Positions 70 through 5,726 are shown, counted from the first letter of the stretch. The stretch is DNA of 5,726 bases from a virus (IMGVR_UViG_3300045988_000721:1-5726), one strand, 5' to 3'. Program-made: numbers and translations. Notes: generated from the sequence alone by a model not told the origin.

Positions 70-297
70 TTACGATATGCCATTGTTATACCCTCTTTTG
101 ATAAGTTCAAGTTCGATTTCTTGTGTAAAGCTCTTTAAGTGCCAGATTTCGTCTAGCATCTTCTTTGCGGTTTCTATGTCCGCTATCTTGCGCAAGAGCT
201 TATATTGCGCGTTAATTTCTTTGTATTTTTTTTCGAGAATGTTTCTCAGTTCGTCTTCGGTCTGGTCTCTGACGTTCCAACTTTTGTTTAAGGCCAT
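70..297 (-). CDS. Hypothetical 75-aa protein, hydrophilic and probably all-helical or coiled-coil. No family recognised.
   Basis: ORF on the same strand as all phage genes and tightly packed between neighbours. A weak purine-rich RBS (gagaaagag) lies 8-16 nt upstream of the ATG at 297. There is no TM segment, signal peptide or recognisable motif. Confidence 0.55.
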   Translation of the reverse strand: MALNKSWNVRDQTEDELRNILEKKYKEINAQYKLLRKIADIETAKKMLDEIWHLKSFTQEIELELIKRGYNNGIS

Positions 298-422: not shown

Positions 423-815
423 TTACACCCCCTTTCTGTATTTTGTGTTGCGGGTATCAAAGTGCACCCACGATTTATAGACGATGATGCCGCAAGAATT
501 CGGTGCCAGCTTGTCAAGCTCTTTTGCTACCTCCTTCGGCGCCATGTCTTTTACGATGATATCAGCCGCCATGCCGCGCATGTGGAAGCTGTATTTTGCT
601 CCGCCTACTTTTTTGTTATGCTCTGGTGTTCTGTAGCCGCTTGTTATAATAACTGGCTTTTTGATTGTTTCGCGTAGGATGTCTAGTAGGATTGCTAGAT
701 ACTCATCTACAAAGACAATTGGTGACCCATCTTTACACGCGAATTCTTTTACTTTGAAGTGTTTTGTGATTTTGATTTCTGCTTGTTCGTCTAATATATA
801 CGCTTTAATTTCCAT
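423..815 (-). CDS. Zinc D-Ala-D-Ala carboxypeptidase-like cell-wall peptidase, Peptidase_M15_3 / M15A family. Candidate endolysin or peptidoglycan-remodelling enzyme.
   Basis: 130 aa. The N-terminal F-x-x-x-EF-x-C motif (HFKVKEFACKDG) is present. SGYRTPEHNKKVGG is followed by SFH-MRGMAA-D, which gives the zinc triad H78-x6-D85 plus H118 in WVHFD, and all three are intact. Strong RBS aagaggt at 823-829, 7 nt before the ATG. A sigma70-type promoter lies immediately upstream. Confidence 0.85.
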   Translation of the reverse strand: MEIKAYILDEQAEIKITKHFKVKEFACKDGSPIVFVDEYLAILLDILRETIKKPVIITSGYRTPEHNKKVGGAKYSFHMRGMAADIIVKDMAPKEVAKELDKLAPNSCGIIVYKSWVHFDTRNTKYRKGV

Positions 816-836: not shown

Positions 837-865
837 ATTCTATCATATAATCGCCGAATTTTCAA
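837..865 (-). promoter_or_regulatory. Sigma70-type promoter reading into the peptidase gene and plausibly the whole gene ring.
   Basis: On the minus strand: TTGAAA (865-860), a 17-nt spacer, then TG-a-TAGAAT (extended -10 at 845-837). An RBS follows at about 823-829 and the ATG at 815. Confidence 0.6.
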
Positions 866-922
866 GGGTTGCGTTAGCAACTTTTGGAATTTCGGCGGTT
901 TCGCCGTTAGGCGTTTTCAACA

Positions 923-931
923 TTTTCCACA
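923..931 (+). promoter_or_regulatory. DnaA-box-like 9-mer TTTTCCACA, fitting the relaxed consensus TTWTNCACA.
   Basis: Direct read of 923-931. It sits in the first unit of the tandem repeat. Confidence 0.35.
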
Positions 932-942
932 TAGTTTTCAAC

Positions 943-951
943 TTTTCCACA
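943..951 (+). promoter_or_regulatory. Second DnaA-box-like 9-mer TTTTCCACA, same orientation, 20 nt from the first.
   Basis: Direct read of 943-951. It sits in the second unit of the tandem repeat. Confidence 0.35.
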
Positions 952-1019
952 TTGTTAAACTTTAGCACAATAGAGCGTTTCAACAATTCAACAAGTTTTT
1001 AACATTTCTTTTAACAATA

Positions 1020-1038
1020 GTTTCTTTCATAAAGAAAC
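1020..1038. repeat. AT-rich perfect inverted repeat GTTTCTTT-cat-AAAGAAAC (8-bp arms, 3-nt spacer).
   Basis: I paired 1020-1027 with 1031-1038 base by base. Possible operator or protein-binding palindrome. Confidence 0.6.
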
Positions 1039-1114
1039 GTTATTGCGTTATTTTTTAATGGTTTTCAACTTTTTAACTACCTCTACTACTACGGCTACAA
1101 CAAGTTAATAAATA

Positions 1115-1162
1115 TATGCGCGTGCGTGCGTGCGCGTTTACGCGCGCGTATGCGTGCGCATA
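1115..1162. other. Long hairpin with a 22-bp stem and TTTA loop, built from two perfect alternating purine-pyrimidine tracts (1112-1137 and 1140-1163). Z-DNA-prone.
   Basis: Pairing 1115-1136 with 1141-1162 gives 17 Watson-Crick pairs plus 5 G-T pairs on the window plus strand. Those 5 positions become A-C mismatches on the minus strand. Confidence 0.7.
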
Positions 1163-1185
1163 CCTTTGAGCGCTTTAGCGCGAAC

Positions 1186-1240
1186 CGGTGTCCGCGCGAT
1201 TTCAGCGCGGTCAGCGGCTGATCAGTCAGCCGCGACACCG
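1186..1240. other. Compact three-way junction: a closing 7-bp helix enclosing two GC-rich hairpins.
   Basis: P1 is cggtgtc 1186-1192 paired with gacaccg 1234-1240. Hairpin A is cgcgc 1193-1197 / gcgcg 1205-1209 with a 7-nt loop. Hairpin B is gcggctga 1214-1221 / tcagccgc 1226-1233 with a 4-nt loop. All pairs are Watson-Crick. Confidence 0.6.
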
Positions 1241-1253
1241 TGCCAATAGGGGG

Positions 1254-1286
1254 TACGGGGGACGCGAGCGGAACGCGGCCCCCGTA
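1254..1286. other. GC-rich hairpin with 8 + 4 bp separated by one A/G mismatch and a 7-nt loop. On the plus strand it is followed by a T-rich tract, so it is terminator-like in plus orientation only.
   Basis: tacggggg 1254-1261 pairs with cccccgta 1279-1286, and cgcg 1263-1266 with cgcg 1274-1277. Downstream on the plus strand is tttcttgataattttaat. Downstream on the minus strand is ccccctattgg, which has no U-tract. Confidence 0.55.
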
Positions 1287-1341
1287 TTTCTTGATAATTT
1301 TAATCACTGAATAGGCTGATACATGGAGCCTTTAAACGGCT

Positions 1342-1377
1342 CTAGCCCAGTACCTTACTTGATAGGTACTGGGCTAG
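1342..1377. other. Perfect 14-bp hairpin with an 8-nt loop (plus TACTTGAT, minus ATCAAGTA), 15 nt downstream of the VP4 stop. Candidate origin or single-strand initiation structure, or an RNA 3'-end element.
   Basis: ctagcccagtacct 1342-1355 pairs perfectly with aggtactgggctag 1364-1377. There is no U-tract on either side, so it is not a canonical intrinsic terminator. Confidence 0.7.
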
Positions 1378-1391
1378 GTGACACCAAAATC

Positions 1392-2414
1392 TTATAAACC
1401 GCCCTTTTGGAGCTTTACAGACTTTTTGACAACTCTTTCTTTTGTCTTTAAATCCTCTGCGAAATCTGCATTTTTATACTTGAGTCGGTTTTGTTCGATT
1501 ATTGCTTTCTGCCTGTTTCTTTTGATTCTCCATAATCGTTCTGGGTTTTCTGCTTCCATCATTTTTTCATAGTATCGCGGAATTTGTGCTTGTTTCCCGT
1601 TGGTGCACTGAATATATCCTTTTTTCCAGATTTCTTCTTTGTGTTCTTGGTAATAAGTATCGCCAAGTCCTGGCTTTAGGCTCATACATGCAAATGGTTT
1701 TTGCTGGCCTAGCTCGTAGTATTGATTAGCTTTTTTTCCGTCAATTTCGTACATTTTTTTTGTAACATAGCCTGCAACATATCTATAGGTCTGTGGTGTT
1801 GCTTGTGCTATCTGTATTTGACCCATTTTCCATAGATTGCACATCCATTCACTTGTGTAATATCCGTTATGCCTTATTTTATAGATTTGTTTTAGGTCTG
1901 TTGGTTTCCATCCATATAAAATCATATGGTAGTGCGGTCTTGCTGTCTGTTCTCCGTACTCTCCTGCACAGAAATAGCGTAGTTGGCCCTTGTAAGCCTT
2001 CCTGAGACGTTTTAAGAACTTTTGTATATCCGGATATAGCAATGTTTGTACGCTCTCTGGTGCCTTTTCTCCCGGCTTCCAGACGTATTGAACTTTACGC
2101 ATGATTTCTCCTGTTTTAATTATCATTCCCGGTACATGGTCATCATCATAAGTTAGTGTGATAAACCACACTTCTTCTTTCGGCCATGCTCTGGCTTCTA
2201 GCTCTATTCGTGTTGTCCAGTCCTCTCTCTGTCGGATTCTGCATCCAATGCATTTCCCACATGGTATTAACATTACTTTTGGGTTGTACATCAAATCTTC
2301 ATATTTCATCTGTTTCCCGGCTAACTCAGAAAAGCGGGCAAGTGACATCACTCGCCCGCTTATTTCTTTGTTTTCCGGGTTGTACAGTCTTATAAGTGGC
2401 TTGTAACAACTCAT
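1392..2414 (-). CDS. VP4: Replication initiation protein VP4, an HUH rolling-circle endonuclease of the Microviridae gene A/VP4 type.
   Basis: 340 aa. It has the N-terminal CGKCIGCR zinc-finger-like motif, RCR motif 1 FITLTYD, the HUH motif in RPHYHMILYG and the two-tyrosine motif 3 YRYVAGYVTKK. Its ATG overlaps the VP2 TGA as ATGA (2411-2414). Confidence 0.93.
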   Translation of the reverse strand: MSCYKPLIRLYNPENKEISGRVMSLARFSELAGKQMKYEDLMYNPKVMLIPCGKCIGCRIRQREDWTTRIELEARAWPKEEVWFITLTYDDDHVPGMIIKTGEIMRKVQYVWKPGEKAPESVQTLLYPDIQKFLKRLRKAYKGQLRYFCAGEYGEQTARPHYHMILYGWKPTDLKQIYKIRHNGYYTSEWMCNLWKMGQIQIAQATPQTYRYVAGYVTKKMYEIDGKKANQYYELGQQKPFACMSLKPGLGDTYYQEHKEEIWKKGYIQCTNGKQAQIPRYYEKMMEAENPERLWRIKRNRQKAIIEQNRLKYKNADFAEDLKTKERVVKKSVKLQKGGL

Positions 2415-3265
2415 CTTAAATAGTCACCTGGCTTTTTCTTTTCGCCGTAATCTCCCGTTTTGTTTTGCGGTTTTGTAAATTCTTGCTTTCTGCCCTGTTT
2501 TGGCGTTGCTTTTTCGACTGCTTCTTCGGTTGCCTTGTCGGTTTTATCTCCGATTTCTGTTAGCGCTTTTTGCATTCCGTAAGGTGTCAAGTGCGTTTCG
2601 CTTAGCATTTGTTGCCAGCTTTGCGCCGCGTTGTACCAATCTGATGTGCTCCAACTGCTGCTACTGTATGCGTTTGGCACAAATCCTCCACTTCTGCTTA
2701 CCCCTAATGCGCTACTACTTGCAAGCCCTATACTTGCACCGCTAATTGTCCCGGCGCTACCTCCGGGTGTGCTCGCGCCCCCGTTTGCGAATGCTAGTAT
2801 AGGATTGATTCCTGCTTTTTTCATGTCTTCTACGGCTCTTTGATAGGCCGTGCTTGACATTCTTTCTTGCCATTCCCTGTTTTTCATGGCTTCGGTGCTG
2901 TTAAAATTCATTGCTGCCGTGTTTTCGATGTGGTTATAAATGCCTTGTGCAATTGCACTTAAGGTGTTATATCCCATTTGTTTTAACATGGAGCCGCTAT
3001 TGAATTGACTTTGCCTTTCTGCTTCCCCTGCTTGGTATTGATATGCACCTTCCAGCCATTTTTGCACCTGCTCGATGTTCGTTCCTGCTTGGCTTCCGCT
3101 TTGTGAATGTCCTCCGCCTTGGCTTACGCTGCCGCCTTGGCTTTGTGAATTTCCTGTCTGTCCCCATCCGCCGAATGCTCCGCCTATGTTTTTTACTGCT
3201 CCTGCAATGCTTCCTATTGCGTTGGCTCCTGCGCCAACCATTGACATAATGGTTAATGGATCCAT
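2411..3265 (-). CDS. VP2: Minor capsid / DNA pilot protein VP2.
   Basis: 284 aa. The N-terminus is hydrophobic and Gly/Ala-rich (MSMVGAGANAIGSIAGAV), followed by a Gly/Ser/Gln low-complexity tract. The central motif STAYQRAVEDMKKAGINPILA is characteristic of gokushovirus VP2. The gene sits directly after VP1. Confidence 0.85.
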   Translation of the reverse strand: MDPLTIMSMVGAGANAIGSIAGAVKNIGGAFGGWGQTGNSQSQGGSVSQGGGHSQSGSQAGTNIEQVQKWLEGAYQYQAGEAERQSQFNSGSMLKQMGYNTLSAIAQGIYNHIENTAAMNFNSTEAMKNREWQERMSSTAYQRAVEDMKKAGINPILAFANGGASTPGGSAGTISGASIGLASSSALGVSRSGGFVPNAYSSSSWSTSDWYNAAQSWQQMLSETHLTPYGMQKALTEIGDKTDKATEEAVEKATPKQGRKQEFTKPQNKTGDYGEKKKPGDYLR

Positions 3266-3303: not shown

Positions 3304-4989
3304 TTACAGCTTATACAGGCCCGGCACGCTATACAACGGCATCCGTCTTGTGGTTTTGTTTGCCACTCGCACGGCTCCGAAAAATTGCGGTTCGCTCTGC
3401 ACGATTAGTGTTCTTGCAATCTCTTCTTTGCCCTCTGCCATCCATTCTTGACTGAGTGTTGGCACAGCGTTGTAGTTGTCGGCGTAGTGCCAGAAATCTA
3501 ACGTCCCGTTTGCGTTGCTTCTCATGAGGCCAGATACTCGGTTTGGCTTCATGCGGTAGTCTGCCCATGCTTCCTGATAGCCGAATGTCTCTTCGTCAGT
3601 TGCTTCACCGGTTAGCATGATTTCTTTCTTCTTTACTGGCTGTTCGCCGAGATTTGCAAACTGTGGTACATAGTAGTCTAGCCTGTCGCGTCTGCTCCAG
3701 AATCGTTCCAATCCCTGCTGGTAACTGCGGTTGTGTCGTACACACGCAACACCGATTACAAACCCGTGCTCTTCAAAACTCTTTGTGAAGGAGCTTTCTC
3801 TGATAGGTGTTACGGATATTGCACCGGTTTCACCGATGGGTGTATCGTTTTCCGTCTGCTGGCCGCTGGTCTGTACAATCTGGTTTACGTTGACTTGGTA
3901 TCTGCCGCCTCCCAGATATTCCGGAATTTGTACGGTTTTATCACTGATTGTCACATCCCATAATGCGCGTACCTGTTCGCGGTACCGGCTGCCACCTCTG
4001 GCCAATGCTTCATAGTACTGCTGCACTGCTACGGCCTGTCTTAAGTCGTTGATTGTTGTTGCTGTTACGTTGCTCAGGTCTGCCGCTATTCTTTCGCCTG
4101 CTTTTGCGCCGCTGCTGATATATCCCAAAACTGCACGCGCTTTTTCATCTGTATTATTGTAATTTTGGGTCATCATTTGAGTTACTGAATGGTGCAGGTA
4201 CCCGGCTTCATTTGTCCAAGTTCCGTTGTTTTTAAGGTCTTGAATCGTTAATGGGTTGTCTTTTGCGTCTGCCCAATATATTGGTGCATTTCCGGTCATT
4301 GGCATCGTAATTTCCGGCCCACGCTGTGGGTAAGGCATACAGGATGTGAAGTAGTCGTGGTATTTGTTTACCGGAAGCAGATTCCCACCTAGTACTGCGT
4401 TTTGCAGGTCGGTTTCCAGTGTTTCCGTTTTTTCTGGCGTAAATTTGTATGTCACGTCTGCGTCGTCGCTTTTTAACACTGCCATGTTTTCCACGTTTTC
4501 ATCTCTAAAAAATTCGTTCCAGATTTTGACATATGCCCTGATTGGTAATGCGTTGATGCTGAATGGTTTTTTGATTTTCGTAGGCACACCCATGTAGTCC
4601 AAAATGGACTTTTCATTAGGTGCCGGGTTTGGTGTTGACGCATTGATTTTAATCTGTGGTACTGCGTATTCCTTGGTAGGCATCCATGGTGTTTCTTCAA
4701 CCTCACCCATGAAATGTCTGAAGTTATCCCACAAGATTCTGTTTGGCGTGTAGAAGTAGTAGAAATCAATGAATGCATCATCCATGACCGGATATTTCGG
4801 TGTGCTCATACGGATAATTGCCGTTGTGTCTACTTGGAAAGTGTCTCCCGGTAATACTTCGTCTACGAAAAATGGAATTAGTTTGCCGGAATCAAATGTG
4901 GTCAAGATAGTCTGGTCTCTGTTGAATCTTGTTCGGCTTGCGTGCATTTCCGGAATCTGAAGGAAATGTCTTTCATTATTTCTGTTCAT
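3304..4989 (-). CDS. VP1: Major capsid protein VP1 (Microviridae F-protein family, gokushovirus-type).
   Basis: 561 aa. The N-terminus is typical of the family (SRTRFNRDQTILTTFDSGKLIPFFVDEVLPGDTF) and the length fits gokushovirus VP1. Strong SD ggagga 5-10 nt upstream of the ATG. The start overlaps the VP3 end by 14 nt. Confidence 0.95.
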   Translation of the reverse strand: MNRNNERHFLQIPEMHASRTRFNRDQTILTTFDSGKLIPFFVDEVLPGDTFQVDTTAIIRMSTPKYPVMDDAFIDFYYFYTPNRILWDNFRHFMGEVEETPWMPTKEYAVPQIKINASTPNPAPNEKSILDYMGVPTKIKKPFSINALPIRAYVKIWNEFFRDENVENMAVLKSDDADVTYKFTPEKTETLETDLQNAVLGGNLLPVNKYHDYFTSCMPYPQRGPEITMPMTGNAPIYWADAKDNPLTIQDLKNNGTWTNEAGYLHHSVTQMMTQNYNNTDEKARAVLGYISSGAKAGERIAADLSNVTATTINDLRQAVAVQQYYEALARGGSRYREQVRALWDVTISDKTVQIPEYLGGGRYQVNVNQIVQTSGQQTENDTPIGETGAISVTPIRESSFTKSFEEHGFVIGVACVRHNRSYQQGLERFWSRRDRLDYYVPQFANLGEQPVKKKEIMLTGEATDEETFGYQEAWADYRMKPNRVSGLMRSNANGTLDFWHYADNYNAVPTLSQEWMAEGKEEIARTLIVQSEPQFFGAVRVANKTTRRMPLYSVPGLYKL

Positions 4990-5386
4990 TTGCTTCCTCC
5001 TTCTGCACCTTTTCTTGTGCGGCTTCCTGTGCCTTTTTCAGCTCTTCCAGCTTCATGGCTTTTACTTGTGCCGTTGCCATCATCTGGTGATACTCGTGTA
5101 TGTTCTGTGGCCATCCGGTAATATCCGTGATAGGCGTTTCTTTCTTGGATAGTGCTCCCTGTGACAGACTTGCCATAAAGGCTGGATCGAAACTCGCTTT
5201 CTTCACGATGTTTTTGATGTCACATTCGTCCGAATAGCTTTCAATTTCTGCTTGCACGTCAATACTCTCGGTTTCCTGTAGGTACTCTTTGCCGTTCTTG
5301 TCCTTTGCCCAGATGTATTGTTTTCGTTCGTTTTTGCCCGGTTCAGAAAAGAGGGGCTTTCGCCCCTCCTCATATCGTTTATTCAT
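4976..5386 (-). CDS. VP3: Internal scaffolding protein VP3.
   Basis: 136 aa, located directly upstream of VP1. It contains DECDIKNIVKK, matching the conserved ECDINNI(V/L)KK-type motif I recall from gokushovirus VP3, and an acidic/Lys-rich helical C-terminus. SD GGAGGG lies 9 nt upstream. It overlaps the VP5-like stop by 8 nt (ATGAATAA). Confidence 0.8.
   Translation of the reverse strand: MNKRYEEGRKPLFSEPGKNERKQYIWAKDKNGKEYLQETESIDVQAEIESYSDECDIKNIVKKASFDPAFMASLSQGALSKKETPITDITGWPQNIHEYHQMMATAQVKAMKLEELKKAQEAAQEKVQKEEANEQK
5345..5368 (-). terminator. Terminator-like hairpin located inside the first 42 nt of the VP3 coding sequence: 7-bp GC stem, GAAA tetraloop, TTTTCT tail.
   Basis: In minus sense: GAGGGGC-GAAA-GCCCCTC-TTTTCT. 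The stem pairs 5351-5357 with 5362-5368. It encodes EEGRKPLFS. Its function is uncertain and could be an attenuator, an RNA stability element or a translational pause. Confidence 0.3.
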
Positions 5387-5618
5387 TCGGTTTGCCCTCC
5401 CATACCTTTTCCTTGTCGTTCTGGAAGTTGCCCTGTTCGTCCTCGAAATCAGCCAGTTTGTAGCCGGTGTAGTCCTGCGGGCTCTGCCCGATGAAGGTCT
5501 TCTCGTCTTTTGCCATTACGTTGCACATGCGTGCAAAGGTCGCGTTGTTTTTGCTTTCGCCTACCCATGCATAGCACTTTGCTACGTTGTCCCAGATACC
5601 ATAATAGGAATGAATCAT
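5379..5618 (-). CDS. VP5: Small non-structural protein, VP5-like (gokushovirus ORF5 family).
   Basis: 79 aa. The pattern Y-x-I-x-D-x-x-A-x-x-Y ... A-R-M, followed by P-x-D-Y-x-x-Y-x-L-x-x-F-(E/D)-x-x-x-G, fits my recollection of the VP5 family. The position immediately upstream of VP3 is as expected. RBS aaagga lies about 9 nt upstream. Confidence 0.6.
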   Translation of the reverse strand: MIHSYYGIWDNVAKCYAWVGESKNNATFARMCNVMAKDEKTFIGQSPQDYTGYKLADFEDEQGNFQNDKEKVWEGKPNE

Positions 5619-5634: not shown

Positions 5635-5726
5635 TTACAGCCGGATGCCTCCGCGCATGGGCTTCTGACTCAGGTTGATAGTTTTAGTTTTTCGTGCGGT
5701 GACATTGAACATGCGTTTATCTTTTC
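5635..5726 (-). CDS. 3' portion of the same 33-aa basic ORF. Bases 5672-5726 duplicate 1-55, and the first 10 nt of the ORF lie beyond the window end in this copy.
   Basis: Same reading frame as 1-65 across the junction, with stop TAA at 5635-5637 (plus-strand tta). The C-terminus PMRGGIRL resembles, from memory, the C-termini of gokushovirus ORF8-type basic proteins. Confidence 0.5.
   Translation of the reverse strand, partial: KDKRMFNVTARKTKTINLSQKPMRGGIRL
5672..5726. repeat. Terminal redundancy, copy 2 (identical to 1-55). The unit genome length is 5,671 nt.
   Basis: Exact 55-nt match to the window start. Removing one copy closes the circle. Confidence 0.9.

Follow-up and report, generated by a model that had tools for sequence, protein, structure and literature searches.

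One of the closest described counterparts of the element reported here is the viral-strand origin of phage phiX174, a 30-nt site at which the initiator gpA binds and cuts (CAACTTG/ATATTAATAACAC...). It lies inside gene A in gene-sense orientation and is not in a hairpin loop. Rolling-circle replication in phiX174 displaces the strand that has been nicked, and it is this strand that enters the virion. Microviruses are regarded as positive-sense single-stranded DNA (ssDNA) phages, and a taxonomy paper describes all microvirus genes as facing one direction. Here we analyze IMGVR_UViG_3300045988_000721:1-5726, a viral stretch of 5,726 nucleotides (the window, by which we mean its whole length). 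It carries a conserved hairpin, at 1341-1387 on the plus strand, whose loop holds a core, ACTTGAT(A), identical to that of phiX174. The site in the window is intergenic, built on a 14-bp hairpin and antisense to every gene. We consider it likely that this hairpin is a rolling-circle origin at which the plus strand is nicked, displaced and packaged, in a negative-sense microvirus: all genes are on the minus strand, and the virion strand would therefore be complementary to the mRNAs. The full-text papers searched contain no account of a microvirus whose origin is oriented against its genes, or of non-coding-strand packaging. The machinery, a phiX174-type origin and its initiator, is known; the arrangement is new.

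The window is a circularly permuted and complete gokushovirus genome with a 5670-nt unit, circular because bases 1-56 are identical to 5671-5726. The GenBank records closest to it are gut gokushoviruses of human, monkey and pig, at ~85% identity. The hairpin sits within the 576-nt spacer (816-1391) between the genes for the initiator VP4 and the endolysin, and is composed as follows:

1341-1387, 47 nt, plus strand: putative rolling-circle (viral-strand) origin, from the covariance model, conservation and covarying stem
1342-1355 and 1364-1377: hairpin arms, 14 bp, 100% complementary
1357-1363: loop motif ACTTGAT, with the loop heptamer CTTGATA at 1358-1364
1374-1385: 3' box CTAGGTGACACC

Compared across relatives, this element consists of a stem that covaries and two invariant blocks, ACTTGAT and CTAGGTGA(CACC). 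We fetched 80 loci of VP4 relatives, 58 of which, including four GenBank relatives, had an intact VP4-to-endolysin spacer. The loop CTTGATA is antisense to the genes in all 58 spacers and has a gene-strand copy in none, and the distance between it and the end of the VP4 protein match is 25-52 nt, except in a single relative with 127 nt. Its surroundings, AGCCCAGTACC-TTACTTGATA-GGTACTGGGCT-AGGTGACACC, are nearly invariant across these relatives, and the stem changes among them are compensatory (CCCAG/CTGGG to CCTAG/CTAGG or CCAAG/CTTGG). In viral contigs at large, the pattern ACTTGAT-N8-14-CTAGGTGA occurs in at least 120 stretches, mostly microvirus genomes of 4-6 kb, and a 42-nt origin consensus matches 406 GenBank microvirus records. 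Two of the pattern matches are chance: L107, with 14-nt spacing and a skew that does not fit, and L188, which has neither the hairpin nor VP1/VP4 homology. When 56 distinct versions of the element were aligned, both ACTTGAT and CTAGGTGA proved invariant, and the stem showed 62 double-change cells against 19.1 +/- 2.9 after shuffling (0/500 shuffles) and 7-25 in slid-partner controls. A covariance model built from this alignment, R1, scores 63.9 bits on the plus strand at 1341-1387 (E 2.5e-15) and 13.9 bits on the minus strand.

The same model recovered homologous intergenic hairpins in Chlamydia phage Chp2 (NC_002194, 2903-2951; 43.1 bits) and the cultured Escherichia phage EC6098 (NC_048874, 1681-1726; 44.6 bits), and it scores 36.2 bits in MG945825. 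The Chp2 and EC6098 hairpins share the architecture seen in the window, namely stem, ..ACTTGAT, stem, and then CTAGGTGA or CAGGTGACACC; the Chp2 homologue reads CTAGCGTATAACAG-TCTACTTGATC-TGTTATACGCTAG-GTGATAGC on the sense strand. The difference is orientation. In Chp2 and EC6098 the element is on the gene-sense, T-rich strand, whereas the window and its clade have it antisense, with an A-rich coding strand. A positive-sense layout would have the site on the gene strand; throughout this clade it is antisense.

Likeness to phiX174 extends beyond the core. The initial annotation of the window, made from the sequence alone, had named CTTG/ATA as the phiX174 gene-A cleavage site, and the core CAACTTGATA does lie, on the viral strand, at the RefSeq rep_origin feature 'origin of viral strand synthesis'. 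Both phages have a conserved block 3' of the cut site, both carry the element on the T-rich strand, and VP4, with its paired tyrosines (YVAGYV) and HUH motif, shares both features with gpA. A second relative of the core comes from plasmids. The Rep of pC194 is a further member of HUH superfamily I, with CTTG/ATA as its presumed cleavage site. The pC194 origin fragment reads TTCTTTCTTATCTTGATAATAAGGG, with a CTTGATA core (PMC7072734). Double-strand origins of the pC194 family serve no packaging, and their flanking recognition sequences differ from those of the window. As a separate observation, SpV4 (L086) carries ACTTGATAAGCAAGGTTTAGGTGA at ~1641-1664 on the sense strand, just upstream of VP1; it resembles the two invariant blocks under a relaxed pattern, lacks a hairpin and, going by its sequence, is a possible SpV4 origin.

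VP4 has the features expected of a matching initiator. It bears a HUH motif (PHYHMILY) and a two-tyrosine YxxxY motif (YVAGYVTKK), the combination that characterizes superfamily I initiators of phiX174-type origins. Pfam REP_ORF2-G2P (5.6e-17) and phrog_942, replication initiation protein (7.8e-110), both match VP4. Its identity to Chp2 VP4 is 31% (1e-38), and its HUH block aligns to phiX174 gpA (E 2e-4). Relatives conserve a CTTG/ATA-type cleavage core in the form of ACTTGAT. By analogy with phiX174 CAACTTG/ATA, we infer that VP4 nicks between G1361 and A1362.

We then compared element orientation with strand composition. Excess T at third codon positions is known for ssDNA phages (PMC3278643), and we therefore measured four-fold degenerate sites on the sense strand:

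phiX174: T.61, A.07
SpV4: T.65, A.28
Chp2: T.49, A.25
EC6098: T.41, A.12
window: T.11, A.49, the reversed bias

On a larger scale, this reversal recurs wherever the element is inverted relative to the genes. Among the first 70 microvirus-size contigs that carry the element, the 53 with a gene-strand element had a mean sense-strand T-A skew of +0.42 (minimum -0.14) and the 17 with an antisense element a mean of -0.61 (maximum -0.38), without overlap between the classes. In an extended set of 103 contigs, T exceeded A in 69 of 81 genomes with a gene-strand element, and A exceeded T in 21 of 22 with an antisense element (Fisher p 1.6e-12), the sole antisense exception being the chance match L188. 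A rough neighbour-joining tree of the longest open reading frame (ORF) of each contig showed at least four separate antisense lineages: the window clade, L130 with L145, L166, and L158, the last nested among same-orientation relatives. MG945825 and L203 are further antisense genomes that were not placed on the tree. The element of the small genomes, though inverted, has its customary place in the spacer that directly precedes VP4 (and follows VP3, in genomes where VP3 was identified); in the window clade it lies just past the end of VP4.

Substitution rates point the same way. Parsimony counts over 54 four-fold sites in 81 VP4 genes of the window clade, expressed for the plus strand, put C>T at 0.079 and G>A at 0.047, G>T at 0.032 and C>A at 0.010, and A>T at 0.019 and T>A at 0.009. 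A plus strand that is single-stranded for part of the time would be expected to show this direction. Compositional and substitution asymmetry thus tracks the origin element, not the direction of transcription, and the starting premise of the initial annotation, that the gene strand is the packaged strand, looks wrong. The coding-strand four-fold sites of the cultured Bdellovibrio phage phiMH2K (L087, NC_002643) are A.47, T.23, C.22 and G.08; the coding strand is A-rich and G-poor, and the antisense strand therefore looks like a viral strand.

Comparable logic is seen outside the family. One mitochondrial study reports that inversion of the control region reverses strand compositional skew (PMC13602327). 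There, too, an origin flip goes with a flip of synonymous-site asymmetry, although the replication system is wholly different and the likeness is one of analogy, not homology. Among viruses of eukaryotic hosts, Anelloviridae and Circoviridae (negative-sense or ambisense) package a strand complementary to some or all of their mRNAs. Circovirus-type Reps belong to superfamily II, with one tyrosine, a helicase and a different nonanucleotide, and no such Rep is known from anelloviruses. For eukaryotic ssDNA viruses, genome types are defined by how the origin stem-loop is oriented to the ORFs (PMC5656780).

The plus strand also stands out in the structured part of the spacer. Region 1090-1400 folds to -84.8 kcal/mol (z -7.96) on the plus strand and -76.1 kcal/mol (z -6.14) on the minus strand. 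Upstream of the origin hairpin, the spacer contains:

849-900, plus strand: AT-rich 24-bp hairpin adjoining the endolysin start, with 19 Watson-Crick, 4 G-T and 0 A-C pairs
859-1077, plus strand: nine direct TTTTCAAC-like copies, iteron-like octamers, several as adjacent pairs
1115-1136 and 1141-1162, plus strand: arms of a 22-bp hairpin seen in the fold, conserved in relatives with C/T changes opposite G
1170-1181, and 1186-1240 (branched, with inner hairpins 1192-1210 and 1214-1233), plus strand: GC-rich hairpin cluster, in the minimum-energy and centroid folds
1254-1266 and 1274-1286, plus strand: GC-rich hairpin with 13-nt arms, 92% complementary, initially annotated as a terminator stem
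1290-1296, plus strand: upstream CTTGATA, absent in the nearest relatives and without an R1 match

Three cues for the plus strand had been proposed from the window alone: G-T pairs in the 22-bp stem, a terminator-like hairpin with a T-run, and the paired CTTGATA heptamers. Once relatives were compared, the G-T asymmetry and the loop heptamer held, and the terminator did not. Counted by hand, the pairs of the 22-bp stem are 17 Watson-Crick and 5 G-T (1122-1155, 1123-1154, 1126-1151, 1128-1149 and 1131-1146) at the coordinates first given, and in the minus-strand fold it is broken into internal loops. The asymmetry generalizes. With a hairpin finder that scored G-T and A-C alike, the plus strand had 221 G-T and 31 A-C pairs in the 94 distinct intergenic hairpins of the window clade (long stems, 180 and 12), compared with a genome-wide baseline in other gokushoviruses of 393 versus 296, about 1.3-2 to 1. 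Homologues of the 849-900 hairpin have diverged in sequence and kept their pairing, with 2-4 G-T and 0-1 A-C. Over the 300 nt that precede the origin hairpin, the plus strand gives the more stable fold in 54 of 59 spacers (mean -4.0 kcal/mol); shuffled controls lean the opposite way (+2.2), and the observed value is below its control in 58 of 59. This G-T excess, whether produced by selection for pairing or by deamination of an exposed strand, points to the plus strand as the single-stranded form. A T>A bias at four-fold sites, an excess of C>T and G>T rates and hairpins that tolerate G-T all lie on the strand that bears the element, and indirectly support its displacement and packaging.

Structurally, these hairpins resemble single-strand origins (G4 oric, the M13 minus-strand origin, ssoA/ssoU), which are long, imperfect, non-coding hairpins that function in one orientation only, on the displaced strand. 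The window hairpins likewise pair specifically on the plus strand, and the extensive non-coding structure favours that strand; they may have a similar function. They differ from the single-strand origins compared in varying greatly among relatives. The 22-bp hairpin is a candidate structure of packaged ssDNA and possibly part of a complementary-strand origin. Its arms (1112-1136 and 1140-1163) are uninterrupted alternating purine-pyrimidine (GC/GT) tracts of 24-25 nt; such tracts are of the classic Z-DNA-prone type, and the hairpin could thus also act through a supercoil-dependent structure in the replicative form. Stem changes in the cluster at 1170-1240 are compensatory among the closest relatives (such as GCGGCTGA/TCAGCCGC versus GCAGCTGA/TCAGCTGC), and the segment is missing from more distant relatives.

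Several results weigh against a packaged plus strand. The family Microviridae is described as positive-sense. The origin stem itself lacks wobble asymmetry (19 G-T versus 21 A-C), and the strand assignment of the element therefore rests on likeness to the phiX174 and pC194 cores and on skew. Skew in turn is not fully diagnostic, since A slightly exceeds T in 12 of the 81 same-orientation genomes (down to -0.40). GC skew does not differ between the orientation classes, where simple cytosine deamination predicts C depletion. Shared ancestry among the relatives means that the counts over 59 spacers overstate independence. Finally, the phiX174 origin is not a hairpin, R1 scores 4.7 bits at its site, and the model has no significant match in phiX174, SpV4 or phiMH2K.

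Much of this would suit a conventional positive-sense phage that packages the minus strand. The hairpin would then act as double-stranded DNA or a cruciform, its orientation would not decide packaging, and the A-rich coding strand would reflect host codon usage or another bias. Such a phage would agree with family convention, an origin stem without G-T versus A-C asymmetry is what is expected if both strands must fold, and the genomes in which A slightly exceeds T and the uninformative GC skew fit as well. We nevertheless judge it unlikely. Skew flips with the element in at least four lineages, including the nested L158; the substitution rates are asymmetric in the matching sense; and the intergenic hairpins pair far better on the plus strand. 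An element of gene expression should hold its orientation to the genes, and the origin element does not. The phiX174 precedent, in which the nicked strand is the one displaced and packaged, argues in the same direction.

A more elaborate variant of the packaged plus strand, to which we give only a slim chance, is that gokushoviruses have repeatedly flipped the origin to yield virions with the template strand, an abundant gut clade among them, and that RNA polymerase reads the incoming strand directly through a folded hairpin promoter. The 849-900 hairpin could be that promoter, as it overlaps the -35 of the predicted endolysin promoter. If so, genes could be expressed before, or together with, complementary-strand synthesis.

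It is very unlikely that the structured island is instead a plus-strand non-coding RNA ending at the 1254-1286 hairpin and its T-run. G-U pairs in such an RNA would explain the G-T asymmetry equally well, and a T-rich run, TTTCTTGATAATTTTAAT, does directly follow the hairpin in the window genome. The promoter scan, however, found no plus-strand promoter-like site near the island, its sole plus-strand match being at 3222-3250, and the terminator scan found no plus-strand terminator and does not list the 1254-1286 hairpin. The T-run is not conserved: the nearest relatives L005, L007 and L009 have GGGATATTGTTTAATTTC instead, and in more distant relatives the whole 1160-1290 segment is not conserved. 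In Rfam 15, searched over the whole window at E<=1, no family reached its gathering score, and the sub-threshold matches were miRNA models on the GC/GT repeat only (26-32 bits against gathering scores of 81-100). A non-coding RNA would also leave the origin-like conserved element and the genome-wide skew unexplained. The terminator that the initial annotation had offered is thus not supported, and the antisense RNA ending at 1286-1300 lacks independent support.

The heptamer pair fared unevenly. The plus strand of the window has CTTGATA at 1290-1296 and at 1358-1364, and the minus strand has none, but only the loop copy is invariant in the 58 relatives. By number alone two copies are not significant (0.60 expected for both strands together; two are reached in 25 of 200 shuffles). 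The T-run is probably incidental, and so is the upstream copy unless it has recently arisen. Coincidence throughout, with heptamers, G-T pairs and T-run all due to chance in a low-complexity, Z-DNA-prone GC/GT tract beside an ordinary palindrome, would fit those counts, the poor conservation of the upstream copy and T-run, and the ease with which C-to-T changes in a (GC)n tract yield G-T pairs without selection, but it is hardly credible given a loop element invariant in hundreds of genomes with a covarying stem, a G-T excess in unrelated AT-rich hairpins and a plus strand that folds better than its own shuffled control in nearly every spacer.

For a packaged plus strand, the following course of events is predicted. 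VP4 would cut the plus strand of the replicative form in the hairpin loop, ACTTG/AT, at 1361/1362, and bind covalently to the 5' end. Host polymerase would displace the plus strand, which would be recircularized and packaged. After infection, the host would build the coding strand on the packaged plus strand; the hairpins at 1115-1286, and perhaps 849-900, would be structures of the packaged strand and probably start sites for the complementary strand. The promoter-like site at 865-837 would then start leftward transcription. That origin elements act on the complementary strand, one of the explanations first put forward, is not the simplest reading, since it is simpler for the plus strand itself to be the viral strand. 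With the plus strand leading or displaced, rolling-circle synthesis would run head-on to the transcription of every gene, the opposite of phiX174.

If this is correct, the family has no fixed sense of packaged strand, and that sense has changed several times through inversion of an origin element of ~50 nt. The element would orient thousands of metagenomic microvirus genomes and predict their packaged strand. For these gut phages, strand-specific detection and ssDNA library protocols would see the opposite strand, and a synonymous composition that flips with the origin could mislead codon-usage host prediction and phylogenies.

Every ORF with homologues in the window is on the minus strand:

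70-297, minus strand: 75-aa ORF beyond the endolysin gene, with only weak similarity (E 0.0016) to a PHROG of unknown function
423-815, minus strand: M15 endolysin, by homologues
1392-2414, minus strand: VP4 Rep, replication initiator, by homologues
2411-3265, minus strand: VP2 pilot protein, by homologues
3304-4989, minus strand: VP1 capsid, by homologues
4976-5386, minus strand: VP3 scaffold, by homologues
5379-5618, minus strand: VP5, by homologues

An additional minus-strand ORF within the island (1095-1307, 70 aa, GTG start) has no family match and is probably spurious. The scan for promoters and terminators ranks 865-837, on the minus strand, as the best promoter-like site ahead of the endolysin gene, and its -35 is covered by the 849-900 hairpin. 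Two candidate sites for host proteins did not stand up. The sequence TTTTCCACA at 923 and 943, in two of the TTTTCAAC-like octamers, fits the DnaA box TTWTNCACA without significance (two matches are reached in 28 of 200 shuffles). The sequence GTGCGCATA at 1154-1162 raised the suspicion of a dif/XerCD site, as in enterogokushovirus prophages, yet the E. coli dif arms were unmatched at <=3 mismatches, in a test that used the E. coli consensus only (28-bp motif, XerC and XerD arms).

Conservation within the spacer is uneven. Positions 914-1158 form the intergenic block most widely conserved among GenBank gokushoviruses, matched by many records, and 1160-1305 is the least conserved portion in the same comparison. 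The window has 16 TTTTCAAC-like matches against 7.9 +/- 2.6 after shuffling, with nine clustered at 859-1077, in this most widely conserved part of the spacer, and these octamers could be iterons for VP4 or a host protein. Second copies of the core recur close to the origin hairpin. One other subclade has a different second copy, TCTACTTGATAGA, at a nearby position that cannot be aligned. Some window-clade spacers (L030, L039, L041, L047, L056, L066, L075, L078 and L082) carry a second ACTTGATAG, in the context TCTACTTGATAGACTGAATAGG, ~60 nt upstream of the hairpin. Two direct copies of a nick site are expected to cause deletions during rolling-circle replication, and the extra copies may be remnants of aberrant termination or may be inactive. 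Directly upstream of the origin hairpin, a short GC hairpin is found in many small gokushoviruses (L090, L111, L114, L123, L133, L139, L155, L160 and others). Its loop is of the GAATA type, as in CGGCCGAATAGGCCG and CCCCTGAATAGGGG, and the CTGAATAGGCTGATACATGG block that is conserved in the window clade, at 1307-1326, may be related to it.

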